The notes under the pieces are model-generated. The model saw nothing but the letters and a program-made list of their open reading frames with translations, did not search any database and was not told where the DNA came from. A DNA stretch of 63,844 bases, filler included, from Reclinomonas americana ATCC 50394 (lineage: Eukaryota): the NCBI GenBank assembly GCA_048213135.1. It is 7 parts of 3 records of this genome, joined end to end, with 100 filler letters (N's around TTAATTAATTAA, not from the genome) between each part and the next. Parts side by side here need not be neighbours in the genome. Positions count along the whole stretch, not along the records: positions 1 to 4,331 come from PS015157.1; positions 4,432 to 9,600 come from PS015157.1; positions 9,701 to 24,375 come from PS015157.1; positions 24,476 to 28,893 come from PS015157.1; positions 28,994 to 50,056 come from PS015157.1; positions 50,157 to 61,852 come from PS015158.1; positions 61,953 to 63,844 come from PS015159.1. One strand, written 5' to 3'. This document shows positions 77 through 63,420 of the stretch, piece after piece. How positions within the stretch are numbered: the stretch's first letter is position 1; each line of letters starts with the position of its first letter. The position numbers were made by a program, and so were the translations under genes.

Positions 77-3000
77 AGTATCACATACGGCGAGCTGTAC
101 GGTGCCTACAATCTGCTGACACAAGAGTGGTTCGACGGCATTGTGCCGAAGATTGCGCGTACGTGCGTCAAGGACATCACCAACGACATCAAGTGGATTG
201 TGTTTGACGGCCCCGTCGACACGTTGTGGATCGAGAGTATGAACAGCGTGCTGGATGACTCCAAGCTGCTGTGCCTCGACAATGCCGAGCGCATCAAACT
301 CAACAACACCATTCGTCTGCTGTTCGAGGTGCAAGACTTGGCCGTCGCCTCGCCGGCCACCGTCAGTCGATGCGGTATGGTGTACATTGACCCCAACGAC
401 CTCGGCTGGCGACCAGTGGTGCAGACGTGGCTGGCCACGGCCGCGCGCCAGCATATTGCGGCGGAGCACATTCAGCATCTGAATCAGCTGTTTGAGGATC
501 ACGTCGAGGCGGGCATTCGCTTTGTGGAGAAGGAAGTTGCGGTGTTTCCCATTCACCGCCAGCTTTCCAGCCCCGTAACTCACATTCTCTTCGCTCTCTC
601 CGTGCAGTGCAAGCAAGACGTGGTGATGCCGTACCAGAACCTGGTGCAGAGCCTGTGCGACCTGATGGTTGCGCTCTTCCTCAGCGACTCTAAGCTGCGC
701 ATCGAATACTCGGCCGAGAACACCGAAGTCAATCGCCAGGCGGTCAAGATGATCAACATGATGTTCGTCTTCTGCTACGTGTGGTCTCTCGGCGGCAACG
801 TCAACACCAACTCGCAAGAGCTTTTCGACGGATTCGCGCAAAAGCAGTTCGAGTCGATTGGCCTGCCGGTTGGCGGCACCGTGTACGACTTTACGATTGA
901 CTTTGCCGAGCGCACATTCGTCAAGTGGGAGAAGCTGGTGCCGGCATTCACCTTCCGACCGGAGCAGTCGTTCTTCCAGATTCTGGTGCCCACGGTCGAC
1001 ACGGTCCGCACCACATTTATTGTCGAGTCGCTGCTGCGCCTCAACAAGCCAGTGCTGGTCAACGGCAACACCGGCGTCGGCAAGTCGGTGATGATTGTCG
1101 ACATGTTCCAGCGCCGCGCCGAGGATCTCGGCATTGTGTACACCACGGTGCAGTTCTCGGCGCAGACCAGCTCCGGTCGCACGCAGGAAATGATCGAGTC
1201 CAAGCTCGACAAGAGACCAAAGGTGAGAAAGAGTCTAGTGTGTGCCTTTTTTTTACCTTGCACACTCTGCTCTCTTTACTGACCCTTCATTCGCCTCCAC
1301 AGGGCATGATTGGTCCGCCGCCTGGTAAGCGCATGGTGGTCTTTATCGACGATCTGAACATGCCGCAAAAGGAGACATTCGGTGCGCAGCCGCCGGTGGA
1401 ACTCGTTCGCCAGCTGCTTGGCATGGGCGGCTTCTACGATCGCACCGATCTGTCGTGGAAGGGTGTGGAGGACGTGACGGTGACGGCGGCCTGCGGTCCG
1501 CCGGGTGGTGGCCGCAATGAGACCACTCCTCGCCTGCTGCGCTTCTTCCATGCGCTGTGCGTGCCGGAGCTGTCGGCCGAGTCGATGCAGCGCATCTTCA
1601 CCTCGATCCTCGCCGGTTTCCTCAAGCCGTTCGTCATTGACATTCGCGAGAAGGCGAGCAACGTGGTGCGTGCCAGTGTGGAACTCTTCCTCACCATCCG
1701 CCGCGAGTTGCTGCCGACGCCGAGCAAGAGCCACTACACCTTCAACCTGCGTGATCTGGCCAAGATCTTCCAGGGCATGATGCAAGTCAACCCGCGTTTC
1801 GTCAGCAACCTCGAAACATTCGGCCGGCTGTGGGTGCACGAGAGCATGCGCAGCTTCTACGACCGCCTCATCTCCGACAGCGACCGACGCACCTTCTGCG
1901 ACATGGTGTTGGAGTTGGCTCGTCGCCAACTCAACCTGAACTGGCAAGAGGAGGACATTTTCGGCGACCGTCCGGTGCTGTTTGTCGACTTTTTGCACCC
2001 AGAGGCCGACATTGCCGATCGCTACTACGAGGAGGTGACGGATCCGGCGGTGTTGCCGCGTCTGCTGGACGACTACCTCGAGGACTTTTGCATTGCCAAG
2101 AACCAGAAGATGAAGCTGGTCTTCTTCTCACAAGGTGCGTGCTCATCATGTACAGGTGTCTGGCGCGGACCGCACATTGTGTTTTTGACACCATGTATAT
2201 TGTTGTGTGTTGCAGCCGTACAGCACGTGTGTCGCATTGCGCGTATCGTGCGCCAGCCGCGTGGCAATGCCCTGCTGGTCGGCGTCGGTGGTAGTGGCAA
2301 GCGCAGTCTGACCAAGCTGGCCGCTTTCATGTGCGGCTACAACACGTACCAGATCAGCATGAAGCGCGATTACCAGCTGAAGGACTTCCGCGAAGACCTC
2401 AAGCAGATGTACATCAAGGTCGGCGTCGAGGGCAACCCGCTGGTCTTCATCTTTAGCGACTCGCAGATCACCAACGAGGCGTTTGTCGAGGATCTCAACA
2501 ACATTCTCAACTCGGTGCGTTTTTTTGTCTCATGGCGGCCCGTGACCTTATCGTGGTACTCATTGTTTGTGCGTGCTCAGGGTGAGGTGCCGAATCTGTT
2601 CGACCCCGACGAGAAGGAAAAGTGCATTGCGGACACTCGTGAGGCGTGCCGCAAGGCTGGACTGCCGGAGACACGTGACGCTGTGTACTCGTTCTTCATT
2701 CACCGTGTGCGTGAGAACTTGCACATGGTGCTCTGCATGAGTCCTGTCGGCGACTCGTTCCGCACACGGTTCGTCCCCATTGTGTGTGTGCGCCTTGCTG
2801 CTTTTTTTGCGATCTTCTCATCCTCTTTTCGTCTCAGTGTGCGCATGTTCCCGTCGTTGGTCAACTGCTGCACCATTGATTGGTTCGACGAGTGGCCGGC
2901 CGATGCGCTGCTGGCCGTGGCGCAACAGCATCTCACCACCAAGGAGGTGGTGGATGTTGAGCTGGTGCCCAAGTACTCGGCGCTGTGCGTGGTGGTGCAC

Positions 3001-4331
3001 GAGTCGGTGGCACGCATGGCCGATCGTTTCTATGCCGAGTTGCGCCGCCACTTTTACGTGACGCCGACGAGCTACCTGGAGTTCATCAACACCTACGGCA
3101 AGCTGTTGAAGGCCAAGACGGGCGAGCTGCGCAAAGCGCGCGACCGCCTGCGCAAGGGTCTCGACATTTTGGCCGACGCCGAGTCCAAGATCACGGTCAT
3201 GGAGGAGAACCTGAAGAAGCTGCAGCCAGTGCTGAAGGTCAAGTCGGTGGAAACCAAGGAGCTGCTGGCGCGCGTCGATGTGGAACGTGCCGACGCTGCC
3301 AAGACGCAGCAGGCCGTCGCCGCCGATGAGGCCGTGGTCAATGAGAAGACGCGTGAGGCCGAAGCCATCAAGACGTCCGCCGAGGCCGATTTGGCCGAGG
3401 CGCTGCCGGCTCTGGAGGCCGCCAACAAGGCGCTGAACGCGCTCAACAAGGGCGCCGTGGCCGAGGTGAAGGGCTACGCCTCACCACCGCCGCTCGTGAA
3501 GCTGGTCATGGATGCTGTGCTGATTCTCTTTGGCGAGAACAAGCCCGACTGGGAAATGGCGTGCAAGAAGTACCTGACGAACGCGCAGTTCCTCACCAAC
3601 TGCAAGAACTTCCCGAAGGACGACATCACCGACAGCACGCTGCGCCGCCTCCAGGTCTACATCAACGACGAGAACTTCAAGCCGGAGATTGTCGGCGGCG
3701 TGTCGGAGGCCGCCAAGACGCTGTGCATCTGGGTGCGCGCGCTCAACACGTATGCGCACGTCAGCAAGGAGGTGGAGCCGAAGCGTCAACGCCTGATGGC
3801 CGCCCAGCAGCAGGTGTCGGAGATGCAAGCGGTGCTGGCCGTGAAGCAGTCCGAGCTGCGCGAGATTCAGAACAAGCTGAATGCGCTGGAGTCGCTGCTG
3901 GAGCGCACCACCAAGGAGCAGCAGGATCTGGAGGCGCAAATCATCCTCAGCGAGGCGCGCTTGGAGCGTGCCGGCAAGCTGACGAACTCGCTGGCCGGCG
4001 CCAAGGTGCGCTGGCAGGAGACGGTGGTCGAGTACGAGAACCAGATCAAGGATCTGCCGGGCGATATCTTTGTGGCCGCCGCCTGTGTGGCCTACTACGG
4101 TGCCTTTACTGGCTCCTACCGACAGGAGCTGGCGGAGATGTGGCGCAACAAGTGCCGCGAGCAGGGCATCACTGTGTCGCCCAAGTTTGATCTGGCCAAG
4201 GTTCTCTCGGATCAGGTCGAAGTACGCGACTGGCAGATCTGGGGTCTCCCGAACGACCCGCTGTCCATCAACAACGCCGTGCTCACCACTCGCTCGCGTC
4301 GCTGGCCGCTCATGATTGACCCGCAAGGCCA
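77..4331 (+). CDS. Axonemal inner-arm dynein heavy chain, DNAH6-like (internal fragment, AAA2 to start of AAA5; partial at both ends)
   Basis: Motifs SITYGELYG, FDGPVDTLWIESMNSVLDD, FEVQDLAVASPATVSRCGMVY, P-loops GNTGVGKS and GVGGSGKRS, FSAQTSSGRTQEMIESKL, stalk coiled coil, RWPLMIDPQG. GT-AG introns at 536-607, 1223-1302, 2135-2215, 2515-2580, 2769-2837. Ends at a gap. DNAH6 subclass is from recalled motif similarity. Confidence 0.95.
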
Positions 4332-4375
4332 NNNNNNNNNNNNNNNNNNNNNNNNNNNNNNNNNNNNNNNNNNNN

Positions 4376-5030: not shown

Positions 5031-8000
5031 TTACGGGAAGATGCCGAGGCTCTTGTAGGCACCGGCAATGCGCGTAATGGCAATCTTCAGCGCAGCAGTG
5101 CGGTAGTTGAGGCTCTCGGCGCGGGCAGCGGCCGACACCTGGCGGGCAATGTCCTGAATGCCCTCCATCACCGTCGAGGTGACCAGAGTGACCTCGTTGG
5201 GACCCTCGGCGGCGGCGCGGCGCAGTGACTTCTCAATCGGAGACGAGATGCTCTCCACGTACGACAGGAAACGCTCATTAAAATTCTCCTCGTAGCGCTT
5301 CTCCTGCAAGGATGGGAGAGCGCACAGAGGTGAGATGAGGAGGACAGGGACAGAAGGGATGCGATGGGATGCGAACCATGCGGCCGTAGCGAATGTGAGT
5401 GAGGCCCTTCAGCCACTCGACGTAGTGAATGAAATCGGCCGACGGCACGACGCACAGGTCGGGAACAACAAACTGCACGCGTGCATGAGAATATAGAAGG
5501 GGAGGAAACAGAGAGAAAAGAGAGAGGAGTTACGTACCACGTTGTGATCCTCCAGGTACTTTTCGGCGGCAGGGGTGGTCGGGTTGACGGCAGCCTCTGC
5601 GTAGATCTTGAAGACAAGACGATGCGAAGTGAGACACACACAATGGAGATGCGAGGGAGCATCCATGAAAACATGCAAACCTTGCAGGAAATGAGGTGCA
5701 CATTGTCGGCGTTCACGGCGTTCTCCTTGGCTGCCGGGATGAACACGTCGACGGGCTTGCTGAACGCTGTTGCCTCGGAGACGGGGTGGGCGCCCGACAG
5801 ACCCTCGAGAGTGCCGCGCTTGTTGAAGTACTCAATCGCCGCCGGGATGTCGATTCCCGACGGGCTGTGCACGGCCGAATTCTTCTCGATGATCGTCGTC
5901 ACCACACCACCAGTCTCGGCGATTTCGAGCGCCAACTGACGGCCGACAAAGCCGAAGCCTAATGCAGGCGAAGAGGAATGAGCACACCATAGGGGCTGAG
6001 ACACTCTCTCTCATTTCCGTACCTTGCAGAGTCACCGTCAGGCCGTTGAAGCTGAAGCTCTTGCCCCACTGCTTGGCAAAGTTGACGTCGTGAATGGCCT
6101 TGAAGCGGCACGACTCCTCAATGCCCGTGCGGAAACCGCGGCCAAAAATGGTGTCGTGGCCTCGCAGGCCGCCCTGCGCCACCGACTTGCCAGTGACCAC
6201 AGCATGCTTGTTGACGTCGTACGGGCGAGCATTTCGGTAGGCGTACAGCACGGCGCCGAGCTCGGCTATAGGAGGGGAGGGGTGGGGGGAAGGGGAGGGG
6301 AAGGGGAAGGGGGGAAAGAGAACGTGAAGTCAGCGGCAGGCCATGAGGGACATAGAGAGAGAACACAGCAAACACATGGCGAAGAGCCACAAGCATGCAA
6401 AGGAGGAGCCACCCACACACGAGAATCACACACGAGAAAAACACATGTAGGACGACAGACTCACGTTGATCGCAGCCGTAATCAGGGGAAATCTGCACAC
6501 CATCAGTCAGCTCCACACGAACTGCGCAACACTGTTGGCGGCAAACACACACTCACCAAACCAACAGACGGGCCCAGGTATGAGTGATTAATCAAATCTT
6601 GGGCGTACAAGCGGCAAACGCGGTGAATCTGACGGCCTGTGCGCACGCCGGGTGAGTGAGTGACAAGATGGGAAACACAGCTCATGCAGGCACGAAAAGC
6701 AACGCACTCGAAAACTTCGCCTTGTTGATCTTGATGCCGCCCTTGGCACCACCCCACGGGATGTCGGCCAGAGCAAACTGCGCGCGAAGGAAAAGAGTGA
6801 GCAAACAGAGGGGGAAGTAGGGGAAGAGGGGCGACGAGAACAAAAAAGAATGAAAGAAATGAAAGAGAAGCAAGAGAGAGAGGGGGGAAGGAAGAAGGAG
6901 AAGAGGGGTGACTGAGAAATCAAAGAACGAAAGAACTGAAAGAGAAGCGAGAGAGAGAGAGGGAGAGGGAGAGAGGGGGAAGAGGGATCGATGATACAAG
7001 AACGCAGACCCACAGAGATTGGGAAAGACAGAGAGTGCGTGAACGAGAGGACGAGAACGCGGACTCCGAAAGCAAACACACAAACTTGAGAGAGGAAAGA
7101 GATTACGATGCACATTGAAAGGTGGAAGTCTGCGCGCAGCTCACTCAAAACACGATGCGCATCTCTTTGCGTGAACGTGTGTGACGACACGCGAGCTGGA
7201 CAGACTCCTTCGCATGTGCATCTCTGCGGGACCTTGCACCAGCCTTGCTGACTTTCTCGTTTTCTTAGTGCGTGTGTCTGACACGCCACAAGAACTGGAC
7301 AGACTCCTTCGCATTATGTACATCTTCGCGTGTGACTTCGCATCTGCTTGCTGAACTCTTGCTGACTCTCTCGTTCTCTTAGTGCGTGTGTGTGACACGC
7401 CACAAGAGATGAATCAACTCGCTCTGCACGTGCATCTCTGCTGGCGGCCTTGCGCCTGCCTTGCTGAACTCTCGTCTCCATTTCCGACTGACTCACTATT
7501 TCTCTCTCTCTATCTGCACGTGACTCTATTTTCTCTGTACGTGCAAACGAGAGAGATCCACACAAACGAGATGCGTGATACCTCCCACGCACGACAGCGC
7601 AAGGATCTAAGGCAGCAAGAGAGTGAAACACGAATGCATACACACACACGCACACAAACACATCTCTCCCTCCCCCTCTCTCCCTTCCCCTTCCCCTCCC
7701 TTCCCCCCTCCGACACTCAACTCGGAAGCTATTGACGGCGGCCAGAGTCTCCATCTCATCCTGCGTCACCGACTCGTCAATCACGAGTCCGCCCTTGGTC
7801 GGTCGCGAAATGTCCGAGTGGATGACGCGGAACGCCTCAATCACTTCCATGCCGCCGTCGTCCTTGATCAGCGGGAAAGACGTCTTGTAGATCAGCTCCG
7901 GCATGCGAATCACCTTCAGGAAGCCGCCAGTCGCCGGCACGTGACGCGCAGCAAGGTCGTAGAAGTGATCCTGTGGAGAGAGAGAGATGGAAAAGAGAGA

Positions 8001-9887: not shown

Positions 9888-12800
9888 TCTCACACACACG
9901 CACACACTCACACACATACAGAGAGAGATGATCAGAGAAGTCGATTGTATGGAGCCGCAACGATCACTGAAAAGAGGGCCTCTTTGAGAATGAGAAACGA
10001 GCAGGGTGTGTGAGAGAGAGAGATCATATTGTGATAAGAGAGTGTAAGAGAGCGATCGTTTCATCTATTCTGTTCAATCGTGTCTTGATCGTTTCTTCTT
10101 CGCTTTTCTCACGTGTTGGCGTTGTTGCTGTTGTGTGTATGTCTGCTGCTAGCGTTCATCTTCCAGCGGTGCTCTTGTTCTATGGTCTGTTTTCTTTTCC
10201 TCAAAGAGGACCTCTATTCAGTGATCGTCGCTCTCCACTCTCTCCTCTCGGTCTTCGCGCTCTGTCGTTGCCTTCTTCTCATCTCCCCGCGATCGTCTTC
10301 TCCACTCTTTTTTCTTCTGCCTTGTCTCTCTTTCTCTCCTTCCATCAGTCTTTCCTTTATTTTCTGCCTTCTCTCCACTCATTGCTTCTCAGCCCCCTCA
10401 CCTGCCCGCATTCTCCTCGTCTCCACTCGTCCTCCCTCTCCACTCTCCTCTACTTATTCGTTCTTCCTTCCTTCTCCCTTCCTCGCTTCTCATCCCTCCC
10501 CCCCTCCCCCCCTCCCCCCTCTCGCCAGCGCCCCGCACCCTCCGCCTCCAACCCCATCATCCCACCACACACCGACCTGGGTCAGCTGGCACTGTGGATG
10601 TGCGACAAGACGCAGCTGTTGACGGCCAGGTATCATCAATCCACTGCAGTGATTCCCCCCAACCCTCTACACCTGTACTGACTGTGCGTTTCACTCGCGC
10701 CAGGGAGCGCTGGTTTGCTCACGTCGCTGAGGTGCCGTTTAGCAACGAACTGCACATGTCGCTGCGTGAGTTCTTGCAGTACGAGGATGACGTGGTGGAG
10801 CCCGAGGTCTGCTCGCCTCCTCCCCCTCCACCCCGTCTGCTCCCAACCTAATTGGCTACTACCACATCCAGATTCCCGAGCTCTTCTCGTCAGTGAGCAC
10901 CAAGCGGCTGTCGTTCCGCAACTGGGATCCGGCGGCCATGGTGCAGGCCGTCTCCAAGAACGATTTTATGCTGATTCCTCACGAACCGGTGCATGTGGAC
11001 CCGCATTTCGGTGTCGCCTGTTGCGTGCCTCGCCATTGTCGACACACTGAACGCCACGACCTCATCCATTTTGCACCACCACAGGGCGACTGCGACGAAT
11101 CGGCGACGAGGTGGAGGGCGTGTGTCTACTGGCCTACGGTTGGCGTACACCGTTGCAGCAGTTGGTGGCCACCTTTCGACGCCAGCGGCGGCGACGGCGC
11201 GAGGCTGGCGAGCTGCACTTTATCGACCACCACATCACGTGGTCAAACTTCCCCAAAGAGCTGATGGCGGAGGTGCTGTTTAAGCGGTTGGCCGCCGGCT
11301 GCGAGTCAGTGTGGCCGTCGGCCCTCGAGGTCAATCTGTGCTCGATGAAGGACGACGACGCTGTCCTTCAGGTGCCGCTGCTGCCCAACTATACTGGTGC
11401 GCAGTGTGCAAGTGTTTGCACAATGTCACTCACTTACTCACTCGTGCCGACGACAGGTTCCCGTGCGCTGTCGTTTTTATTCGAGGAGGAAAGTGCCGAA
11501 GAGGCGCTGGTGACTGTCCTCGACGGTGCTGCCGATCTGTTTGACATGCGCGAGTCCAACGATCACTGCAGTATTCGATTTGCCGTCACGCGTTTCGTTG
11601 CGTAGATCAATGCAGATAGCATTCGCTCGGCACGCCTCCTGGCTGACTGCGTGCCTGCGCAGGAACACCTCGGCAAGCCGAGCCAAACCGATCCCGGCCG
11701 ACCAATGCATTGCGTGCGTGTGTGCGCGCAGTGGAAGACACGCAACAAGGATCCGTCGGCCGACGACCCACCGTCCATGTCCCTGAATCTGTCGCCCGAC
11801 GCACGCGTATTCCGCACGGCCGGCTCGTTGCAGAACTCACCCGAGTTATTACGTTCTCCAGCCAGCCGCGTCTGTTTTTTCCCAATCCGAGACTTACTCG
11901 CAGGTTTTTGTTGCACAGGTCGACTGCTCCAGAAGGTAGAATAGCATCGTCGTGCTCATCGCCTCTTTTATGCAAACTGTTGACGTGTTTTCATCCATTG
12001 TTGCGCGCAGCGCAAGCGGCCGACACCATTCCCGGTCTGCGGGCCATGGTTGAGCAGATGAAGAAATTCGAGAAGCGGTTTGCGCAGCTTGCCGCTGTGG
12101 AGCCTTCGCCGCCGCCACCACCACCACCTCCGGCGCTGGCCACATCGACGACCGCAGTCACACACACCGTCCAGTCGACGGCGCCGCCCAGTGGGCAGTC
12201 GGCGACCGTGGCACAAGCGTTGCGCACGCACTCACTCCTTTCTGTGGCGGTGAATACCCGAAGACTAACTGTTTGTTTTCGTGCTTTGTTTCTCGGCAGC
12301 AGCGATACGCATGCGCGGGGAGAGACGCATGGAGAAGGCGCGGTCGATTTGTCCGACGTGGATGAGCCGCGGCACAAGCGTCCTCGTGCAGGTCTCTCAC
12401 CACGCACCCCGTCCTCCTCGACGTGGCGATTCCGTCGCAGCAGTGCCGATGCAGTTGCGTAGCGTGCCACGCACTCTCCCGCCACGCGTGTACACTGCCA
12501 ACACCTGATGCGTCGGTGTGCCCCTGCAGCAAGCGGATGACGGCAACGATTCTACATCTCCGGACCCGGGGGATGGCGAGTTCACACCTCGGCGCACACA
12601 CCGTCTGCCGCCCAGATCCCGCTCACGCGGCTCCAGCGCACCATCGACCCCACGGGAGTCGATCCCAACCGATGCTCCGCCCGTGACATTCGCAGCTGTA
12701 GCCGATTTGGTACGCGTGCCGGAAGACGATGACTTTGATTCGGGCTCGTCGGGTCAGTCAGTCTTGTCAGTGAGTGGCCTTGTTTTTTTTCGCTCATCCT

Positions 12801-43300: not shown

Positions 43301-44672
43301 NNNNNNNNNNNNNNNNNNNNNNNNNNNNNNNNNNNNNNNNNNNNNNNNNNNNNNNNNNNNNNNNNNNNNNNNNNNNNNNNNNNNNNNNNNNNNNNNNNNN
43401 NNNNNNNNNNNNNNGTTGACGGAGATGCTCAACTTCCTCCTCACTGCGAGCTCTGAGCGTCGCGAGAAGTTGCAGGGTTCGTGCATGTGTCGCCGTATGC
43501 GTGTTTGTGTGTTTGGCTCATGTCGCGCTCTCGACAGCTGACATGGCGGAGGAGTTGGCGGAGGGTGCGGAGGAGAATGCCTTTGAGGACAGGTTCGAGT
43601 TCGAGAACATGATCATTGGACAGTGGTCGGAATTCACCGGCGGCCTGATCAAGACACACGAGACATTCCTGCCGTTCTTCTACGAGACCTTCTGGCAGGC
43701 CGTGTGCTCCATGGCGGTGCGTTGAAGAAAATGGATGATGAGCCGCGTGCGTTGCACAGAATCTAATCTCTCTCTCTGGTTTTAGTCGACCGACTCGGTG
43801 CACGCGTACCGCCTGGCCGCCGTGTGTGTGTTCTGCGACCTGATCGAGTTCGCCAACGCGGTCGTGTCGGAGAATGCGCCGTTCATTCTGCAGACTCTGA
43901 TCTCGTACACGACCGACGACTCGGAGGAGATTCGACAGACCTCGATGTACGGCTGCAGTTTGTTTGCGGAGCGCGCGCCGCCAGAGGTGTGGAGCCAGTG
44001 TGCTGACAGTTGCGTGACGACGAGTGGTGGCGAGGGCAGGGAGGGGAGTGTGGCTGGGGCTGACAGTGCAAACGCGCAGCATTGATTCCGCTCTTTGTTC
44101 GCATGTCGGACAAGGAGGCACACAACTCAATTAGGAGGTTTGAGGGCGCACGCTGCAACGCCGTCAACGGGCTGTGGAGGGCGCTCACATGCCACCCGGA
44201 GTCGTTCAGCAATGCCGACGAGGTGAGCCAACTCATTTACTCTGTTTTCTTGTTGTGCACCCTGCCGTGTTACTCACATGAGCGCAATGCAGACCTTCTC
44301 GTACTGGTTCAACCATCTGCCAGTGATGGGCGATCCGGGCGAGGCGAAGAAGGTGTACGACGTGCTGATGGGCCTCATTGAATCGTTCGTTGCATGCATC
44401 TTGTCGTCATCGTTGTTGTTGCTGGTTGCTCATGATTGTTTCTCTTCAGTCAACACCCGGTGGTCACCGCCGTGGAATCGCTGCCGCGAGTGGTGGAAGT
44501 CTTCTCGAGCGTGTGGGGCTCGCAGTTCATCACTGAGGAGACCGGGCGCAAGGCTGCGCAGTACCTCCAGCACCTGCAAGCCTCGGGCATCAATCTGGAA
44601 CAATACGCCGCACACCTCTCCGCCAAGCACCAGAAGCGCCTGCGCCGATTGATGGCTGCCCCAGTGGCTTGA
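40366..44672 (+). CDS. IPO5: Importin-5 / karyopherin beta-3 (HEAT repeats); spans a gap
   Basis: LSGDNPEIRRAEAYF, VRQGAAVLMRK, GWPELLPALFQ, LDRVATAIGG, DWKGRFAAL, IAEGC, HVRWAALGTIGQ, RVQAQAA, LRGRIFEAMSLVCCAVGKE, SIRTTELQEKAAA. 13 GT-AG introns traced, the first directly after the ATG (40369-40486). IPO4-like not fully excluded. Confidence 0.88.
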
Positions 44673-50156: not shown

Positions 50157-53011
50157 TCAACCAATGCTCCCGGCGCTGACTCCACACCGCCCCTCCCAAC
50201 GACGGCGCTCGCAAGGCCGCCGCTCACCAGGCGCCCGCTCACCCTCGCCCACCTCCTACGGGCGCGACATCAACTCACCGCCACTCATTCCCGTCGGCCA
50301 ATCATCGCCTCCTCAGACACCAGCAACAGCAACAGCAGCGGCTCCCAGCAATCATTCCAAATCGGCAGTGTCGGCGCTTGTGAGTGGTCTGGCACGTTAC
50401 AAGTCACTGGCAGGTGGCGCCAATGGTGTGACTGTATGACGAGCATGCCCACTTCTCTCTGTCTGTCTGTCTGTCTGTATCACTCACACACGCACATTGT
50501 CGGATTCACGCAGCAATGACTCGAGCACAGGCGCAACGCCATCGCGCCTCCATGATGATGTACGACAAGGAGGTGCGTGTTGTGCGTGTGCAGAAGCAGT
50601 CGATATGTAAACCCGGCTTGTGTAATCACATCATCCGCATCGACAGCTGCGCGTGACTCAAAATCTCGTCAACGAGGACCGCTGGTTGCCGCCAGTCAAC
50701 ACGCACATCTACCGTCGCGCCTCGGTGGCCGGCATCATCACTGTAGCTTCGTCGCCGCCGAGTGGCTCACCGGGAGCTGCAGCCAGCGAGCCAGACGTGC
50801 ACAACAATAACAATAGCCATGACGATGATGGCGATGAGCGGCCACGAGCATCGCCACTGCAGCCGCAGCAGACGCTGGCGTTGATGACGGTGGAGAAGCG
50901 GATGCAAATGCGGCTGGCGGAGCTGCGCAGCGATAAGGAGCAGCGGCAGCAGTTGCTAAAGCGAGTGCACGAGTACGAGAGGGAGCGCAAGCCGGCGGCG
51001 CCACCCACGGCCGAGTCGTCGTATGTCGAGGCGAATAAGGAGCAGGCGTGGCTGCGTACGCGGGAGGCTTTGCGGCAGCATCTGCATTTGCTGGTGAGTG
51101 GTTTGGTCAGCCTCGTGCTGCGCTCTCGAACACTCAACACCTGTTGTGGTCAGAGTGAGCAGGAGAGTTTGCGACTGACCCAAGCGCTGAGTCGCAAGAC
51201 GGCGCTCACCGCCGAGCAGCGCGAGCACGAGGAGCTGCTGGCACGTGAGCTGGCGGAGCGCATGGAGGAGGCGGCGGAGCGGCACGAGTTCTGGGTGCAT
51301 GTGTATCCGATTGTTCGTCGCCTGCAGCGGCGCTGGTTAGGCTACTCGGCAATGGCATCGCGGATGGCTGTGCTGGAGCGTGCACTGTCCACGCACCGGC
51401 ACGATGACTACATTCAGCGTGTGCGAATGCGCGCCGCTCGATACCTGGAGCGTGTCTTCTTTCCACTCGTCAAGGCCCGCATCCGCCTGCGTCGGCGGCG
51501 ACTGGCGGAGATCATTGGCCGCCACACCCTCTCGCTTTCGATCGGCTGGCGCATTCATCGCAAGCGCCGACTGGCCACCGTCATTATTCACGCCATTTCG
51601 GCCTTTCGCCAAGTGCGCGATCTGGTGCAGCACGTGCGGCGGGCTCTCATGCAATGTTGCGTCACTGCTTCACAAAAATCAGTCGAGGGTGTGCACAGTG
51701 GATTTTCTGACTCTGTGTGTGTGTTTTCACCGCAGACAAACTGTCGGCGGCGGCAGTGCGCGACTGGATTCGGTGCACGCTGGCACGCCGTGCGCTGGTA
51801 CATCGACAGTGGCGACGCTTCTTCGAGCGGCATCGTGCACTCTGCCTGCGCCGTCTCGGTCAAGGGAATTCGTCGCGTGCTCCCTCTCGATCGCCGTCGC
51901 GCCCAGCCTCCCCGGGCAGTCGACTGTCGCCCGCTTCACTGCACACGACCAGTCTGTCGAGCTCCTCGTTCCCCGTGAAGCGGTCACCGTCGTCGCGACC
52001 ACCCACACCGCCACAACTGCGTCGCACCCAGTCGTCGATGTCACGGCAGCCATCGCCACGCTCCGTGCCCGCCGAGTTGGCGCTGACTGGAAGCCTGCTC
52101 TCGGTGCCATTGTCGATGTTGCGCAGTGCAGTGCTCTCTTGTGTATTACTTGGTGCGCGATATTGACCGTCGCTTGCCACAGGGACGCCAAGAGACCACG
52201 CCGCGACGCGCGCTCCGACGACACATTCTTCCTCAACTTCTTCACTGTGTGCGTCATGCAATCGCCGCGTGTGTGTTGCGTTACACTTCAGCTAATATCG
52301 TGAGACGATCTCGCGCACCGCAGAGATCAAGTTTGCGATCGTCAACCGTTGGTGGATTATGGTGTGGCGGCGGCGCGCGCCATGATGAAGGAGCACGTGC
52401 GCGAGCTTGGCCACTTTAGTCACGAAGTCGACCAATTCCGCATGGATGTCGAGGTGTGGTGCCTGCTACCAGGCATGCATGTGATGTGGTGCTGGTGGCT
52501 CACTCTGTTCTCGTCGCAGCGCCGACTGATTGAGGCCGCCGTCCGACACACGCTGATGACGGGAGGCTTCGAGTCCAGTGACGACACACCGACGTCCAAG
52601 TCCAACGATGCCCTTTACGCGGAGCCAATTCGCGCCTCGCGTGCGATTGTGCGGGCCGTGTCGCTCCTCGGCGGGCACATCAACTATCGTGCGCTGATCG
52701 ACGAGAATATGCCCACATCCACGCTGCCGGATGAACCGCGGGAGGAAGTGGCAGAGTGGCTGGCGGAGGAACGGCCGCATAAACCACTCCGCCGGGCGCT
52801 GCTTGGCGAAGCGCAGCTTCGCGAGATGTACGAGGTGAGTCCCCAGTTTACACAAACAGAAAGTGCGAAGGACAACTGATCCGTGGCGACACAGATGACG
52901 TACCAGCTGGCAGTGGTCGATTGCGCTGCAGCACTCAACGTAAGCGAGGACTCGGTGACTCGTCGCTGGCCTCTTTCTGTCTGCTGCGCCTGGGCACCAC
53001 CAACACAGTGA
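50157..53011 (+). CDS. Hypothetical coiled-coil protein with Arg-rich IQ-like segments (5' end may lie in gap)
   Basis: Coding-like exons (EKRMQMRLAELRSDKEQRQQLL, RAARYLERVFFP, AAARAMMKEHVREL) linked by GT-AG introns. No family recognised. Confidence 0.5.
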
Positions 53012-53091: not shown

Positions 53092-54948
53092 CATGGGCGA
53101 CTTTTGTCACAGTCTCCTCGACACCTCCTCACTGTTTGGCTTCACCAACATTGCGCGCACCCTGCACCAGCGCGAGGCTGGACAGGGGGCACCCTCGCTG
53201 CGTTTCCGACTGCACTTTGCCGGGGCGGCAGCCATCAATGATCACCGCATGCGCCTCGCCCACACAGTGCGTGATCCTTTTGCGTGTGTACAGTGTGTCT
53301 CCCCCTCCCGCATCCCTCACAGTGTGACAGAGCACCATGGACGCGCACGATGCGTCGTCGTCGCGCAGCAACAAACTGGCATTCTTGAAGCAGCGCTCCC
53401 GTGTGGTGGAGGTCTTGTGCGCGGAGCAGTTTGTCATCGTGCTCACCAAGTCGGGCGTGTGTGCTGTCTTTCATCGTCGTTGCGTCGGTGGCTGGAGTAT
53501 GGCCTGTGATGGTGATGGTGTTGGATGAAGTGGGTCTACAGAAACGCATTTCATGATCACAGATTCGCACCGCCGTGTGTGTTACCTCAATGTGCAACCG
53601 GATGAACTTGTCAGCAGTGTCACACACAACCGCGCCAACCGCTCCATCATCACCGTGTCGGTGCACAGTGCCGACAGCTATCAGACGTTGCATTGCCGCT
53701 CCACTCCGATCGAGTTGCGAGACAACTCCACTGCGCACGCGCACGCAGCGCTGTCTTGTTGCACTGCTGACCATTGAAGTTGATCGTCCTACTCCTTCTC
53801 CCTCTCTCCTCTGCCGTATGCAGATACCTCAGCAACAAGTGGGACGCCGGTCTGCAACTGTTCAAGTTCGAAGAGCTGAAATGGCCGGCGTTTGTGGAGT
53901 TTGACGAGACCGACGTGGACTGCCCCTACGTGCTGACCTACTCGTCTGTCACACACATGTTCCGGCTGTGGGACGGCTGCAACTACGACTTGGTGCTCTC
54001 CATCAACGACGATGGTGTTCAGGATGTGAAACTCAGGTCTCTCACCACCATCGCTTCCTGATCATGACGAGTGATTATCTCACTGACTGACTACGACACG
54101 GCAGCCCTGGCATCCTGCTCATTGTCTACCAGCGCACGGAGCACCACCTCCCTGTGCGTCTCGTCTCCGTCCGCGAGCGCCGCGTGATCAAGGCATGCAA
54201 GCTGCCGGTAGACCCGCAGTACCGCATCGATCTCATCGAGTTGATGGAGGACCGCGTGGTCATCAAGCAAGACGGCTGCCCACTCACCATTCATGATGTT
54301 GCGTCTCGTCCTCTCGCGGGCGTCCGTGAGGCTGTCGGCTCAACAACGTTGCATTCGCAGCTGACGCTGGACACACGCCTGGTGGTTCCCGAGTCGCACG
54401 ACATTGTTCCGAAGCGCTTTCTCTTTCTGCAGCAGAGTAATCTGTTCCTGACGCTGTGCGCCAACGAGGTCACCGTGTGGACCGTGACGGGCAAGCGAGT
54501 GATTTCGTTACGCTTGCTTGTCATGCATGCTAGCGCTACCAGCATTCATGCTTCTCATCTTCGCTTGCATGCTGCAGGTTCTTCACCGATGTGGATGACA
54601 AGGAGCGTGTGCAAAACTTCTTCCTCAGCCGCTGCCAGACTCGCGTGTTCCTGTACCAGAAACCGCAGGATTTCCGCCTCACAACGGCGGCTGGAGGTGA
54701 GAGATCTTGATCTCGCTTATTTATACGTCTGTTGGTGCTAATCTTTCCTGTTCTGAGTAGCCACGACAGGTGCCAGTCTGTCCATCATCGACCTTCGCTC
54801 CGGCGACTTTGCCGTGGCGCGACTGGCGGCCCACACCACTCCGGCGCCGGTCGCTCTGCACCAGGTGACGTCGGTTTGCATCGATGAGGAGCAGGGCACG
54901 CTGATGCTCGGCGATACGACCGGTGCGGTGCACTGCTGGAGCAAGTAA
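53092..54948 (+). CDS. Uncharacterised WD40-like beta-propeller of a family I recall from plants and protists
   Basis: LAFLKQRSRVVEV, LTKSGVCAVF, RRVCYLNVQPDE, SIITVSVHSADSYQTLHCRSTPIEY, LKWPAFVEFD, VQDVKLSPGILLI, LMLGDTTGAVHCWS. Introns 53267-53330, 53479-53562, 53714-53823, 54037-54104, 54298-54360, 54507-54577, 54697-54760. Confidence 0.8.
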
Positions 54949-58150: not shown

Positions 58151-61100
58151 TCAGTCGTTCTCATCGGGTTCTCTGAGAAGCACATTGTCGACCATGGGTC
58201 GCGCAAATGGCAGCAGCACAGACCGCAAGCGCTGTGTGTATGCCTCGTGGCTCAACTCGCCAGGGAAGCCGTTTCTGTGCAGACAGGTGAGCTAGATACG
58301 TCGGCACCGCCACTCGCAAAGCACATACCCTGGTTCTATGACATCGGGTATATGGATCGCTTCAGCACTCGTGTCCTCGTTGGGGAACACAGTGGCGAGA
58401 CAATGCCGCAAGCTGTCCACATTATTCATCTCGTAGTGACAGACGAGAGGCAGCCCGGAAAATTGCTGTCGCGTACGGCCGATGAGCTCGAGCATCACGC
58501 TTGCGGCACAGATGGGAACTGTAAAAACAAACCAAAAACGCATGCTGCGACCGCCGATATATGCTGTTGACACGACTCGGCACAACAAATGTGGGATTGA
58601 GATAGGGGACGCCAGCCGCCAGCAGTTCGTACACCTCGAGCGCCTCCAGCGGAGTGCCCAGCTGCAACAATGCTTGAGTGCGCTCCGCTCTCAGTGACGT
58701 GCAGCCGCAGACACACTCACCCCCACGGCCACGCGCACTTCTGTGCCGAATCGCTTGCGCCAATCGTCATAAGAGATGAATGGTCGACGGCGCATATTGG
58801 GAAACGCGGCCTCTAAGTCGGTCAGGCGCTCCTCGCACGTGTAGTACACCACATCAACAACCGCGGCCAGTGCACCAAACACGTCCAGCTCCGTCTGCCG
58901 GTAGTCAGCCACGGTCTGCGTGCCACCACCATCCGCGTGAGTCTGCGGATCACTATTTTGCATCACATCGTGTGCATCCGCACCTTGCCGACAACGTAGG
59001 CCGCCACATGCGATCCAACGGGCGGCGTGTGCTGCTTTGCCTCGTCGCCTTCGGCGTCACTCGCCACCGCTCCCCGAAACAGATCGTCGCCAAGGTAGAA
59101 GCCCAAGAATGTGTTGCACGAGTTTGGCGTGCCGCTGAGAAAGTTGGCCAGCGGGAGGAGGCCGTCAAAGTACGTGCCCGACTTGTGACAGCGGCCGAGT
59201 GGACTGAGTACGAAGACTGCAGAGACGAAGAATTGTGAGACAGGTACAACACAGCGAATACGCAATGCGACGTACTGCGCTCCGTCGCCGGCTCCATCGC
59301 CTTCAGTGCAAAACTGACAAACAAGCGCCGCACCACGTCTGCCACGTACTTCTCGTCCACGATGAACACGCAGTCGCCCAACTCGAAGCAGTGCTCACGC
59401 AAAACCAAGTCCCAGTGCGTCATGCCATAGGTGCCGATGAGATCAGTATCGAGCTCACGCGACACCAGACGCAGAGAGTCGAAAAGGATTGTGTTGCCAC
59501 GAGGTCCACGAGCTGTGTGCATCGACGGATGATGAGCATCGAACAGGGTGCACGAAGCAAACTCGCCAGCAGAAAGCACAACTGTTCTTCTCATTGTCCT
59601 CCACCCACTCCGGTGTGAGGCCGTCCACGCGGGTGACAATCTTGAGCTTTTCGAGAATGCTCGGATCGTAGTCGACGGGAGGCATCCGCTCTGGTTCCTG
59701 TTCACCCTGCCCTTCTCGCGGCTTGCTGATCTGCGTCGAGCGCCGCATCGGCTCCCCAAGCAGCACTCTCAGTCTGCTAATGTACTCGTCCTCGGTGTAG
59801 TCGCGGGGAAGGGCTCTGCGCAGGCGGGTAAGTGAATGTCGCAAGTGTGAAAGGGTGAGAAACAGGGCACGAACGATATTTCGCGGGCCTGGCTCGAGAG
59901 GTACTCGATCGCTGCATGCATACACGCTAGTGCGCTGCTGGTGTCCTCCGTGTCGTACACGCACGTTGCCGGAAGGATCGTCTGCGCGAGAAGAGTGCAG
60001 TCAGTCCACACCTCCCGTGCCACCCTACACACTACGTTCCGGGTTGCACGTACCAGCGCCGGGTACTGTATGTGGCGAGTGACATCGTAGGTGATGGAAA
60101 AGGCGGCATTCATGACAAAGGCACCGGCACCGAGGGCCTCCATTGCCATCGGATCGTTGACTGGCTCTGTAAGGCCGACGATCACATCGATCTCGTCGCG
60201 CAGTGCGCTGCGCAACTTGTCGCGATCGGCGTGGTACGACGGCGGCAGGCGAACCACCTTGCCGTGTGTGTATGCACCCTCCAGCGCCGGCAGTGTCATC
60301 CGTGCGTCGTAGTACACTTTCGAGGCCAGTGGGACCAGGGCAGCGATGATGTGCCGCAGACTGTCGTACGATGCTGGATCCTTGCCACTCAGCAGCAGTA
60401 CTGGGTGACCGGAGAAGTGCGTTCGCCGCTGCGCCAGCACCGCCGGGGGTGCCGGCGGCACAAAGAAACCCAAGAACGAGTTGCACGGTGCCCCGGAGCG
60501 ATACGACACCAGGTACTGCGTCAGCGGGTACGCCTTGCCGTGCTCACGCAGCGGTGCATCGCACACCTCGTCCAGCGACAGCGAGTAGATTTGCCGAAAC
60601 ACATCCACCTCCTTGTACCGCAGTCGTTCGCGCTCCTCCGGCTCCATTGCCTGCCGATCGGCGTGTGGCGACGGCACAAACTGCGACAGCAGGTGGTCCC
60701 TGATATGCGGCTGCCACGCCACTTCGGTGATATGCACACAGCGCATCGGCGTATCTTCGCAGTGCCGATTGAACTGCTTGCGCCACTCCGTCATCGACGC
60801 GGTGATGATCACTTGTCGCACATGCAGCTGCTCCAGCCCGTGCACCAATGACTCCACCACCACCTGCCGACCGGATTGCGCTCCATCTTTTTCTTGCTGG
60901 TCAGCACTCGGAGCAGCAGCAATGCGAACAGAACACAAGACGCAACTCAACACGACTCGCTTCCACTCGCGGGCATGCACGTCGCAGCGAAGCAACACCG
61001 TGAGCGTCGACGGATCAGCAATGATCTTTGGTGGTGACGAAGGAGGAGGTGTGATCGGAGCCTGAGGTGATGGCGATGCAGGTGGTGGTGGCGGCGATGG

Positions 61101-61684: not shown

Positions 61685-61952
61685 TTGACACGTGTGTGTG
61701 CAGAGGTGTGTTTCCGCGGTGGCCTGGTCGTTGCTGGTGTGGTCATTGGCTTGTGTGCGATCACGTTCCTCTACTCGATTGTGGCCATTCGCAAGTTGCG
61801 ATGATGATGATGATGCATTGTGTGTCTTTGTGTGTGATTGACTCAAGAGAGANNNNNNNNNNNNNNNNNNNNNNNNNNNNNNNNNNNNNNNNNNNNTTAA
61901 TTAATTAANNNNNNNNNNNNNNNNNNNNNNNNNNNNNNNNNNNNNNNNNNNN

Positions 61953-63420
61953 TGCGGTAAAACACATCGCGGCGATGGAACGCAATGCACGGCTTGTTGG
62001 CGACCATGTCTGTGCACGCGAGAGTCGCTTTAGAGAACACTGACGACGTGCGGAGAGCAACGTGGTCCCCACTGACCCTGTTCGTTGTCGAACACGTGCA
62101 TTACGCCATCCACCATCTTGTAGCGCTGCGTGGCCACCGGCAGCTGCGGCCCGTTCCACGGATCGTAGCTAACCTGCGGCAGTGGAACAGCGCCGTCCAC
62201 CTCCTCGCACTCCTCTCGCAAAACTTCGTCGGCACGTGGTGGCGCTCCCGACGCCTCATCACCTGTGCCGTAAATCGTCTTGCGCAGGTACACATAGGAC
62301 GGATTCTGCATGCACACGTGAGGGACGTGCGTTGGCCATCGCAAAAGTGAATTGCGACGTAACATCACTGGCTTCGGCGTCCCATCGGCACTTGTGACGA
62401 TAGTCCATGCACTCGAGCAACATTTCGGCAACCTCAATCGACTCATCCGACACATTCTCCTCCGTGATCGACAGCAGACCGAGATACGACGTCTTCGAGG
62501 TGAACGGGCCCAGCAGCGACTGCCCCGAGGCCATTTGACGGTCGGCTTGTGGCTGCAACACGTGGATCAAATCGCGCAGTTGATCAAACAGCCTGGTGAA
62601 CGGAGAGGACATGTGAGCTAGCCGTAGGGCGATTGCATCATACAGAAGAAGAATCGCGCAACTTGGTGTGAATGTTGGCACTCTGCAGGCTCTGCACGTC
62701 CACCAGTGGACTCGGTGTCGACGGCATGTGCGTCGCGGCCAGTGCAATGGCAAGACGCTTCTCCGCATCGGCTGTGAATGGCACGTGAGCGCACAAAAAG
62801 ACTTAAATTCGGCGACTGTGGTTTTCGGGCAGACAAACCTTGCGACGAGCGCGCTTCGTCCTCGTCCGGTCCGGGTGTCGGCATGTCGTATTGAGCGTAC
62901 GAACTGGCGGTGGAGGACAGCTTGCCCATGCCGCCATCCTCGGGGAACAACCGGCGAGTAGGGTGCGCAGCCGGTGCCGCAGCAGTTGCTACCGCCGGGC
63001 CGGCCGACGCTCCAACAGCAGTCGCTGCGCCAGGGGGTTTTCGCACAAGGTCGATGTGAGGAACCGGTGGTCCCATGGCGCCGACATGCGTAGCAATCGA
63101 CGCGGTGTGCAGTTCCGCCGCAGCAGCTGCTGTAACTCCATGGCTGCCTGCATCAAATGCCGACTGGGGCGTGTGAACGTGCGATGTGTGTTGGGGAGGG
63201 CGGAAGGCGGCGCTCGGTGGCAACGGTGGCATGCTCTGGTATCGGCCCGGCCCCAAGAATCCACCACCTCCAGACTGCGTTGGTGAGCCGACTGGTGAAT
63301 GCGACGGTGATGGGCCGGTGGTGGCCGTTCTGCGGCGAGACTCACAGTGAGGCAAGACGAGGAGAAGGAGGAGACCCAAACCTCACTGTCTCCAAACACT
63401 GTATGTATGAGCGTTGTCAT
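61953..63420 (-). CDS. AMP deaminase-like protein, N-terminal portion (catalytic domain beyond the gap; start uncertain)
   Basis: ESIEVAEMLLECMDYRHKC, YKMVDGVMHVFD and FHRRDVFYR resemble the pre-catalytic AMPD N-terminal motifs (R.KY, Y.M.DGV..V, F..D). Confidence 0.65.

Follow-up and report, generated by a model that had tools for sequence, protein, structure and literature searches.

The introns in this stretch of Reclinomonas americana DNA raise the question of why about four in ten of them start with GTTGCGT rather than with GTGCGT or GTGAGT, and whether the choice between these donors is tied to the last base of the exon (position -1). The window, which is the whole stretch of 63,844 nucleotides that was analysed, is intron-rich and has eukaryotic gene content (dynein heavy chain, glutamate dehydrogenase, an importin-5 relative, and kinases). 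Its introns are GT-AG introns of 56-85 nt. Donors of the GTTGCGT kind are referred to here as shifted and the others as ordinary.

The introns of this one 64-kb window were called from a codon-usage parse by our own rough gene finder, the donor model of which contained no exon positions. The parser was capped at an intron length of 300 nt and missed long introns, and some ordinary donors adjoining (GT)n runs were mis-set. A 236-nt intron called at 7013 was rejected as false, and the true intron there is 944 nt according to glutamate dehydrogenase homology. The core set consists of 84 of the 91 parsed introns (45-135 nt, start outside a (GT)n run). The coordinate of a minus-strand donor is its first intron base.

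GTTGCGT occurs in 38 copies on both strands against 14.85 expected, a number that none of 100 shuffles reached, and its enrichment (z 6.7) ranks among the highest for non-repeat GT 7-mers. The coding strand inferred from the codon-usage parse carries 34/38 copies. The base preceding these 34 copies is A in 12, C in 11, T in 11, and G in none, and strong branch and acceptor signals lie downstream of 25 of them. GTTGCGT is the commonest donor 7-mer of the core set (22/84), where the shifted class makes up 31/84 introns. The shifted donors of the core set are more uniform than the ordinary donors, with GTTGCG in 26/31. The extra base of the shifted donors is specifically T: GTNGCGT occurs 38 times with T, 16 times with G, 12 times with C, and once with A.

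Homology places the cut before GTT at 536, 7721, and 42057, and approximately also at 25556, in the following introns.

536..607, + strand: shifted-donor intron GAA/GTTGCGG, dynein gene, 72 nt, phase 0 (homologue scoring)
6778..7721, - strand: shifted-donor intron CGA/GTTGAGT, glutamate dehydrogenase gene, 944 nt (GDH alignment)
25479..25556, - strand: shifted-donor intron GAT/GTTGCGT, kinase gene, 78 nt, phase 0 (AMPK comparison)
42057..42118, + strand: shifted-donor intron TCC/GTTGCGT, importin-5-like gene, 62 nt, phase 2 (6xte alignment)

Splicing at 536 gives the best score against 5/5 dynein homologues, and both a donor at 542 and the unspliced form score lower. The exons flanking 6778..7721 match GDH chain 6dqg/1nr1 to residue 109 and from residue 110 without a gap, and those around 42057..42118 match importin-5 chain 6xte to residue 400 and from residue 402, with the split codon as residue 401. 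When 25479..25556 is translated as if unspliced, the product has about 28 residues more than AMPK chains at precisely this place. Four ordinary introns of the dynein gene are available for comparison.

1223..1302, + strand: ordinary intron AAG/GTGAGA (dynein alignment resumes downstream)
2135..2215, + strand: ordinary intron AAG/GTGCGT (27-residue insert relative to homologue)
2515..2580, + strand: ordinary intron TCG/GTGCGT (22-residue insert relative to homologue)
2769..2837, + strand: ordinary-register intron ACG/GTTCGT with T at +3 and G at +5 (23-residue insert relative to homologue)

The other shifted donors are listed below.

11020..11084, + strand: shifted-donor intron CCT/GTTGCGT, 65 nt
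11597..11662, + strand: shifted-donor intron TTC/GTTGCGT, 66 nt (alternative donor CGC/GTTTCGT at 11592; -1 is C either way)
12219..12299, + strand: shifted donor AGC/GTTGCGC (acceptor uncertain, 12299 or 12440; outside core set)
12454..12529, + strand: shifted-donor intron GCA/GTTGCGT, 76 nt
14631..14691, + strand: shifted-donor intron ATC/GTTGCGT, 61 nt
15453..15535, + strand: shifted-donor intron GCA/GTTGCGC, 83 nt
17680..17740, - strand: shifted-donor intron GGA/GTTGCGT, 61 nt
18210..18292, - strand: shifted-donor intron AAT/GTTGCGT, 83 nt
18424..18492, - strand: shifted-donor intron TGA/GTTGCGT, 69 nt
18636..18691, - strand: shifted-donor intron TTT/GTTGCGT, 56 nt (alternative donor ATA/GTTGCGT at 18723)
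19244..19412, - strand: shifted donor GGC/GTTGCGT (acceptor uncertain; outside core set)
19490..19572, - strand: shifted-donor intron GGA/GTTGCGT, 83 nt
19696..19754, - strand: shifted-donor intron GTC/GTTTCGT, 59 nt
19866..19940, - strand: shifted-donor intron CGA/GTTGCGT, 75 nt
26395..26513, - strand: shifted-donor intron CGC/GTTGCGT, 119 nt
27381..27498, - strand: shifted-donor intron CAT/GTTGCGT, 118 nt
28188..28253, - strand: shifted-donor intron AGA/GTTGCGT, 66 nt
28461..28544, - strand: shifted-donor intron CCC/GTTGCGT, 84 nt
32432..32497, - strand: shifted-donor intron TGA/GTTGCGT, 66 nt
33219..33290, - strand: shifted-donor intron CGA/GTTGCGT, 72 nt
33455..33525, - strand: shifted-donor intron GCA/GTTTCGC, 71 nt
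37684..37743, - strand: shifted-donor intron CAC/GTTGCGT, 60 nt
37937..38003, - strand: shifted-donor intron CCT/GTTTCGT, 67 nt
44009..44079, + strand: shifted-donor intron ACA/GTTGCGT, importin gene, 71 nt
48232..48302, - strand: shifted-donor intron TTT/GTTGCGT, 71 nt
49215..49277, - strand: shifted-donor intron TCT/GTTGCGT, 63 nt
51656..51735, + strand: shifted-donor intron AAT/GTTGCGT, 80 nt
52118..52182, + strand: shifted-donor intron GAT/GTTGCGC, 65 nt
53479..53541, + strand: shifted-donor intron GTC/GTTGCGT, 63 nt
54298..54360, + strand: shifted-donor intron GAT/GTTGCGT, 63 nt
54507..54577, + strand: shifted-donor intron TTC/GTTACGC, 71 nt
60881..60946, - strand: shifted-donor intron TGA/GTTGCGT (acceptor 66 or 83 nt away)
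62306..62363, - strand: shifted-donor intron GAT/GTTACGT, 58 nt
62593..62662, - strand: shifted-donor intron CAA/GTTGCGC, 70 nt

G precedes none of the shifted donors of the core set (0/31; A14, C7, and T10) and 31/44 of the ordinary donors (24/33 of the GT[AG]NG form and 7/11 of the GTT[CT]G form). A contingency test of the -1 base against register on these predicted introns, with both ordinary classes pooled, exhibits a strong association (Fisher 5e-11). Codon composition gives an expectation of 10.3 G among the 31 shifted -1 bases, and the probability of finding none is 2.8e-6. Classing without regular expressions, by the position of a G-T/C pair (+5/+6 or +6/+7), gives -1 G in 0/33 shifted and 30/42 ordinary donors. 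The union of two parses gives 0/36 shifted entries (35 distinct donors) and 30/43 ordinary donors. With 12219 and 19412, the acceptors of which are uncertain, and the homology-backed 7721 added to that union, there are 38 distinct shifted donors and none of them follows G. Exons of the core set that end in G have the ordinary form in 36/36 cases, and those that end in A, C, or T have the shifted form in 31/48. These findings are consistent with a sequence-only reading of the same stretch, which had claimed that about 35 shifted donors never follow an exonic G and that most ordinary donors are G/GT, and which had proposed such a contingency test for RNA-seq-validated introns; 14/14 coordinates that it cited carry the sequence and strand it gave (its ordinary donor at 6464 was checked by eye only). 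Strict coupling of the shifted class to a non-G exon end is confirmed within the window. Among the shifted-motif sites that were not called introns, 13/83 are preceded by G, which indicates that GGTT is not generally avoided.

The coupling might be an artefact of intron calling in which GTTGCGT is partly coding or mis-set and G-preceded cases are missed, and we consider this highly improbable. The gene finder is rough, as exhibited by the missed 944-nt intron, the false call at 7013, and the mis-set donors adjoining (GT)n runs, and three G-preceded look-alikes (15700, 17148, and 36388) have fair 3' signals. However, the donor model is independent of exon positions, the GTTGCGT copies are gene-oriented with strong downstream signals in the numbers given above, and three residue-exact homology checks agree with the calls. 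On codon score, the interiors of the look-alikes at 15700 (0.38) and 36388 (0.33) resemble exons, and both sites were rejected as introns; accepted in-frame introns score at most 0.12. The third is as follows.

17148..17210, + strand: look-alike AAG/GTTTCGC after G, candidate intron within a terminal open frame

This candidate is 63 nt long, in frame, and stop-free within the 1415-nt terminal open frame 16144-17558, its codon score equals that of its flanks, and it is probably exonic.

Both donor classes appear to belong to ordinary major-spliceosome GT-AG introns, with an extra T after GT in the shifted class. Both classes have the same acceptors (GCAG/ACAG) and branch motifs (CTCAC, CTGAC, and CTCAT), their median intron lengths are 70 and 69 nt, and their G+C content is alike. 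The phases of the shifted introns are 11/13/7. A second, highly uniform donor class beside the ordinary one is also known from U12-type introns, but the shifted class, unlike these, shares branch sites and acceptors with ordinary introns; a search of the window for the U12-type donor RTATCCTT gave 0 matches. When the donors are aligned on the GCGT block, 63/75 have G in the column before [G/T]-T. The +1 G of the shifted G-T-T-G-C-G-T occupies the column of the last exon G in the ordinary G/G-T-G-C-G-T, which suggests that the splice-site reader keeps its recognition frame and that the cut is displaced by one base. The classes are not a single position matrix slid by one base, since the -1 base of shifted donors (0/31 G) differs from the -2 base of ordinary donors (9/44 G, p 0.009). 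The sequence statistics favour the earlier proposal of a single recognition frame in which cleavage falls one base earlier, and leave its GG-to-GT route of donor sliding unsupported; a slide of this kind would displace the end of the exon by one nucleotide and disrupt the reading frame. The classes could alternatively be converted by a one-base insertion or deletion of T at +3 with the cut unmoved. Orthologous introns for testing either route were sought and none were found.

The predicted duplexes with the canonical U1 5' end have a mean of -1.1 kcal/mol for shifted and -6.8 kcal/mol for ordinary donors, and the +1 G is paired with C9 in just 3/31 shifted donors. Changing the -1 base to G is predicted to stabilise the shifted donors by 2.9 kcal/mol. 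Given the weak duplexes and the gain from -1 G, canonical U1 energetics explains neither the abundance of the shifted class nor its avoidance of G. The bases downstream of GTT are mostly G-C-G, unlike the A-rich forms best suited to U1 pseudouridines. A search for snRNA genes within the window found none.

The poor fit to canonical U1 and the far greater uniformity of the shifted donors may point to a second U1 species or a divergent U1 5' end complementary to GUUGCGU (for example, with A replacing C across from the second base and with G-C facing C-G), with the shifted donors as its substrates and the ordinary donors using the usual U1. Variant U1 snRNAs (vU1) with altered 5' ends exist in humans (excerpts of PMC3561869), and it is a hypothesis only that such forms might supply the major spliceosome with a second donor specificity here. 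A dedicated U1, however, would bind G/GUUGCGU equally and alone does not explain the avoidance of G. The U1 5' end is also, to our knowledge, nearly invariant among eukaryotes, and we regard this explanation as rather unlikely. A distinctly unlikely explanation is a bulged U: +1 G and +2 U would pair with U1 as usual, one U (+2 or +3) would be bulged, GCGU would pair downstream, and neither cut nor register would depart from the ordinary. The bulge +2/+3 and +3 registers documented for human donors have, like the donors here, an extra nucleotide between GU and the paired block (Roca et al. 2012; excerpts of PMC4856993), hand-counted pairs are equal in the bulged and shifted registers for a non-G exon end, and 30/31 donors with -1 changed to G are predicted in the canonical register. 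However, a bulged register keeps the -1G:C9 pair of ordinary donors, so -1 G should be favoured, yet it is absent from the shifted donors. A bulge should also tolerate any base, but only T is enriched here and the extra base of shifted donors, unlike that of bulge registers, is always T. A very unlikely explanation is that U6, U5, Prp8, or a protein reads GCGU at a flexible distance from GU independently of U1, and that a -1 G disturbs the catalytic step only in donors with the extra U. The predicted U1 pairing is weak in every register, the avoidance of G exceeds that in the -2 column of ordinary donors, and U6, not U1, sets the cleavage site where U1 binds elsewhere (excerpts of PMC4856993). 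In ordinary donors, however, the distance from GU to GCGU is constant, and U6 pairing would likewise need a shift or bulge.

The best explanation, in which we have moderate confidence, would be a common frame that is read by a U1-like reader and cut before the available GT. Shifted base-pairing of U1 has been experimentally demonstrated in human cells (excerpts of PMC4856993 and PMC9311317). The human shifted-register 5' splice sites, like those here, belong to GT-AG introns; the intron G+1 lies opposite U1 C9 in place of the exon G-1, the downstream pairs are displaced by one, the cut is made at GU and not at the U1-defined junction, and the printed model shifted site ACA/GUCAAGUAU has an exon end that is not G (Tan et al. 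2016, excerpts of PMC4856993). The human sites are rare and atypical, and their downstream bases are A-rich and well matched to U1, whereas the class here makes up over a third of the core set with a fixed GTTGCGT, a poor fit to canonical U1, and a strictly non-G exon end. Roca and Krainer are said to have reported a few dozen such human sites in 2009.

We infer that U1 or a variant of it reads the common frame. The early reader of the 5' splice site would most likely be the U1 snRNA 5' end, possibly in a lineage-specific form, and it would need a G followed by G/T and by T-G-C-G-T, all in the same frame. Cleavage by the catalytic core would then take place before whichever GT is present, so that the cut in shifted donors falls one base earlier. 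The last exon base would set the form of the intron: G would give a full match with the ordinary form, and after A, C, or T the G would be supplied by the intron itself. The -1 base is codon position one or two in 20/31 shifted introns, which makes it most probable that introns adjust to exons and not the reverse. Selection would prefer the ordinary form after G over the shifted form, and the shifted form over the ordinary form after a base other than G.

Shifted donors, in which the intron starts with GTTGCGT or a similar sequence one base off the ordinary GTGCGT or GTGAGT, were never found after an exonic G in the window. The introns were called using a purpose-written Viterbi gene finder that combines codon log-odds with a mixture model of the donor and with terms for branch site, acceptor, and length. 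The donor model scored only positions +3 to +9 and left the exon positions unscored, so the last exon base (-1) was unable to bias the intron calls. The GT...AG ends of all parsed introns are by construction. The gene finder makes rough calls: a 944-nt intron and the long terminal exon at 16144-17558 were missed, a false 236-nt intron was called, and genes were split or merged. Because of this roughness, only signal-supported introns were used, in several versions of the set that include two parses. The gene finder also drifted to (GT)n donors (1238 for 1223, 42498 for 42486). (GT)n microsatellites lie just inside the introns at 1223/1238, 42486/42498, and 34268/34317, and the alternative GT donors that they create in frame mislead signal-based calling.

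The core set consists of 84 of the 91 parsed introns, where those outside 45-135 nt or with a start in (GT)n were dropped. It comprises 31 shifted donors (GTT[GAT][CA]G), 33 ordinary donors (GT[AG]NG), 11 ordinary donors with T at +3 (GTT[CT]G), and nine others. A frame-consistency test with flanks of 12 or 20 codons was too noisy for use.

G at -1 is exhibited by 0/31 shifted donors, 24/33 GT[AG]NG donors, 7/11 GTT[CT]G donors, and 5/9 others in the core set (Fisher, shifted versus both ordinary classes together, 5e-11). The sequence-only reading had claimed that shifted donors never follow an exonic G, and it had named a contingency test in which G|GTTGCGT at the expected rate would speak against the claim. 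The sequences that it cited are present at all of their coordinates. The claim held in all versions of the set: no G was found among the 31 shifted donors, where codon composition predicts 10.3 (probability of none 2.8e-6). When the donors were classed by the position of the G-T/C pair and not by regular expression, G at -1 was found in 0/33 shifted donors versus 30/42 ordinary donors. The union of the two parses gave 0/36 entries (35 distinct donors) versus 30/43. The distinct shifted donors total 38, none after G; this total includes 12219 and 19412, both with an uncertain acceptor, and 7721, which homology proves.

Counted from the exon side of the core set, all 36 exon ends in G are followed by a non-shifted donor, and 31 of the 48 exon ends in A, C, or T are followed by a shifted donor. 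The phases of the shifted introns are 11/13/7. The -1 base is the first or second codon position in 20/31 of them, which suggests that the intron end is fitted to the exon base. The GTTGCGT 7-mer itself has 38 copies versus 14.85 expected (matched by 0/100 shuffles) and stands, together with GTGCGTG and GTGAGTG, near the top of the non-repeat GT 7-mers by enrichment. The strand called coding by the codon-usage parse carries 34 of the 38 copies, with -1 bases A12, C11, T11, and G0, and strong branch and acceptor signal at intron distance follows 25 of these 34. A lone donor at 24750 (minus strand), CTG|GTGGCGT, has an extra G and not T before GCGT and follows an exonic G; it was called in both parses with intron scores of -5.1 and -0.9.

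Sites on the coding strand that match a loose motif follow G in 9/91 cases, and in only three of these does the 3' signal reach at least 3. The G-preceded look-alikes at 15700 and 36388 (GTTACGC) preserve the frame and contain no stop, and their interior codon scores (0.38 and 0.33 per codon) are exon-like, where accepted in-frame introns score 0.12 or less per codon. Both were rejected as introns on these scores, and use of 15700 as a donor would, in addition, leave behind an exon of 18 nt. The site at 16018 was rejected as a shifted donor because its acceptor belongs to a clear ordinary intron with donor AAG|GTGCGCG about 50 nt downstream. AAG|GTTTCGC at 17148 (63 nt, in frame) lies inside the terminal open frame at 16144-17558. 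Its codon score is -0.09 versus -0.12 and 0.11 for the flanks, so coding statistics do not discriminate, and we think that this site is exon. Motif sites that were not called as introns follow G in 13/83 cases; GGTT is thus not avoided generally. The terminal exon at 16144-17558 (plus strand, 1415 nt) encodes the Ser/Pro/Ala/Gly-rich low-complexity tail of a protein of about 1800 residues for which no relatives were found. Its codon score is near zero despite an open frame of 471 codons.

The window is eukaryotic DNA with 57% G+C. The genes that were named are as follows.

Genes of the window named by translation and homology
1-4380, plus strand: DNAH6-like axonemal dynein heavy chain
about 5031-7904, minus strand: glutamate dehydrogenase
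40916-44923, plus strand: importin-5 relative
minus strand: two protein kinases

The remaining genes are without clear relatives. The best relatives in the protein search with the dynein were just 54% identical. An importin exon as query of the protein search gave no match, the window's own protein included, and the genome of the window appears to be without annotated proteins in the collection searched. The search of the window against Rfam gave no match. Names from translation alone were given to a leucine-rich-repeat (RNI-like) protein with a long coiled-coil tail at 46798-49963 (minus strand) and to a single exon of 312 codons at 57127-58062 (plus strand) that resembles animal-type haem peroxidase. 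Six masked blocks (4332-4431, 9601-9700, 24376-24475, 28894-28993, 50057-50156, and 61853-61952) each consist of 44 N, 12 readable letters, and 44 N. Longer N runs lie at 38236-38962, 43224-43414, 55712-56707, and 56813-57086.

The introns are mostly 56-85 nt long, with the branch motif CTCAC, CTGAC, or CTCAT, a branch A that usually lies 13-27 nt before the 3' end, and the acceptor [G/A]CAG. The glutamate dehydrogenase intron at 6778-7721 (minus strand) is far above this norm at 944 nt; it has a shifted GTTGAGT donor and is rich in purine (GGGGAAGG-like) and (GT)n repeats. The same gene carries at 6437-6464 (minus strand) what we take to be a probable 28-nt micro-exon (ISPDYGCDQ), judged by eye against human GLUD1. 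It ends in a C|GTGAGT donor that the sequence-only reading had listed. Four of the five dynein introns examined (536-607, 2135-2215, 2515-2580, and 2769-2837, plus strand) are stop-free with lengths divisible by three, so a single frame spans three of them uninterrupted, from 901 to 4380. Length modulo three over the 84 core introns is 25/25/34, without an excess of lengths divisible by three.

Protein homology places the exon ends directly before GTT at 536, 7721, and 42057, where frame and residues are continuous after intron removal. In the dynein, splicing at 536 gave the top score against five of five homologues (196, 178, 183, 173, and 78), versus 184, 166, 171, 161, and 66 for the in-frame donor at 542 and 165, 144, 150, 156, and 48 for the unspliced sequence. 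At 7721, the upstream exon was aligned to residues 55-108 of the glutamate dehydrogenase chain, hence its last residue is 109. The second residue of the exon from 6777 was aligned at residue 111, which puts residue 110 at its start. The chain thus continues without a gap across the intron CGA|GTTGAGT...CAG|. At 42057, the flanking exons carry importin-5 residues to 400 and from 402 on, and the split codon is residue 401. The read-through translation of the kinase at 25556 is about 28 residues longer than AMPK chains exactly at the 26-codon intron. Many further shifted introns contain stops or have lengths not divisible by three, and the parse needs them for this reason. An mRNA of equal length would result if the two boundaries were each moved by one base, but this needs non-GT and non-AG ends and was set aside on the GT-AG rule.

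Both donor classes exhibit similar intron features. The branch motif CTCAC, CTCAT, or CTGAC was found in 23/31 shifted and 27/33 ordinary introns, and the acceptor GCAG or ACAG in 26/31 and 27/33, respectively. Median length is 70 nt for shifted versus 69 nt for ordinary introns, and G+C content is common to both. The introns show the U2-type GT-AG arrangement of a CTNAY branch site upstream of a pyrimidine-preceded AG. U12-type introns, with donor RTATCCTT and branch site TCCTTAAC, were considered and rejected; this donor has no match in the window, and the branch motifs are as in ordinary introns. These similarities place both classes in one spliceosome type. No orthologous or paralogous introns were found in a metagenome scan (two loci) or between the two kinase genes, which have no common intron position next to 25556. 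One metagenome locus (L002, 1-12907) encodes a dynein heavy chain of another eukaryote that is 57% identical in the best segment. It has 50% G+C, introns of 200-400 nt, ordinary GTGAGT/GTAAGT donors, and one GTTGCGT, so its splicing style is not related to that of the window. The shifted class thus does not belong to this dynein gene family as such.

With GCGT as the alignment anchor, shifted donors have their first intron G in the column of the last exon G of ordinary donors. This column is G in 63/75 donors, near the usual conservation of the -1 G in eukaryotes. Together with the exon ends that homology places before GTT, this supports the earlier proposal that the recognition frame is kept and cleavage occurs one base upstream. 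The inserted base is T (GTNGCGT counts A1, C12, G16, and T38), which is expected if the second T fills the +2 T column of ordinary donors. The proposed sliding from GG to GT would displace the exon end and with it the reading frame; a single T gained or lost at +3 would change the donor class with the cut unmoved.

The pairing with U1 was compared by hand count and by nearest-neighbour duplexes. Shifted donors form five pairs in the shifted register versus three in the canonical register by hand count. With the canonical U1 5' end AUACUUACCUG, which may not be that of the host, the mean duplex energy is -1.1 kcal/mol for shifted donors, -6.8 kcal/mol for ordinary donors, and -4.0 kcal/mol for GTT[CT]G donors. 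Under the same 5' end, the +1G:C9 pairing is predicted in only 3/31 shifted donors, and changing -1 to G in these donors is predicted to add -2.9 kcal/mol. After GTT, shifted donors are nearly all GCG and not the A-rich forms that best fit U1. The -1 column of shifted donors (0/31 G) also differs from the -2 column of ordinary donors (9/44 G, p 0.009). The weak duplexes, the GCG form, and this column mismatch fit poorly with canonical U1.

Shifted and bulged registers are both known in human cells. A bulged nucleotide at +2/+3 would let U1 keep its canonical pairs at -1, +1, and +2. This register keeps -1G:C9 and favours G at -1, yet G was found in 0/31 shifted versus 31/44 ordinary donors, and the bulged register does not agree with these counts. 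A second U1 species, or a U1 5' end peculiar to this lineage, is a live alternative. The best reading may be an order of preference, in which an ordinary donor after G would be best, a shifted donor second, and an ordinary donor after non-G worst; such an order would explain 36/36 and 31/48 alike. A more far-reaching reading, in which the major spliceosome of this lineage reads two donor registers side by side through a second U1 snRNA or a remodelled U1/U6 pair with a 5' end matched to GUUGCGU, seems to us rather improbable. If it is true, the choice of snRNA for each intron would be set by the last exon base, a non-canonical U1 would be needed for about 40% of introns, and exon ends would be freed genome-wide from much of the near-universal preference for G.

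The literature search was limited in extent and found no genome reported with a GTT-shifted class as a large share of introns, which does not prove absence. The donor motif itself turned up only in primers and papers on other subjects. Within this search, work on shifted base-pairing or a shifted register was found for human, yeast, and tunicate only, and the Plasmodiophora literature gave only branch-site and intron-length figures. A shifted U1 register has been demonstrated for rare human donors (PMC4856993, PMC9311317). The shifted class of the window resembles these donors in form. The cut at GU one base upstream of the junction in the pairing frame, which marks the shifted register of Roca and Krainer, was found here at the protein level.

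Gene finders whose training rests on ordinary donor matrices will annotate this genome wrongly. The constraint that splice signals place on exon ends would be measurable here, where 48/84 exon ends in the core set are not G. Usually the position of the cut is tied to the frame of U1 pairing, and in human genes exceptions to this are rare oddities. A genome with a one-base offset in about four of ten donors, governed almost absolutely by the last exon base, would show how a 5' splice site comes to be recognised and, after that, placed for catalysis.
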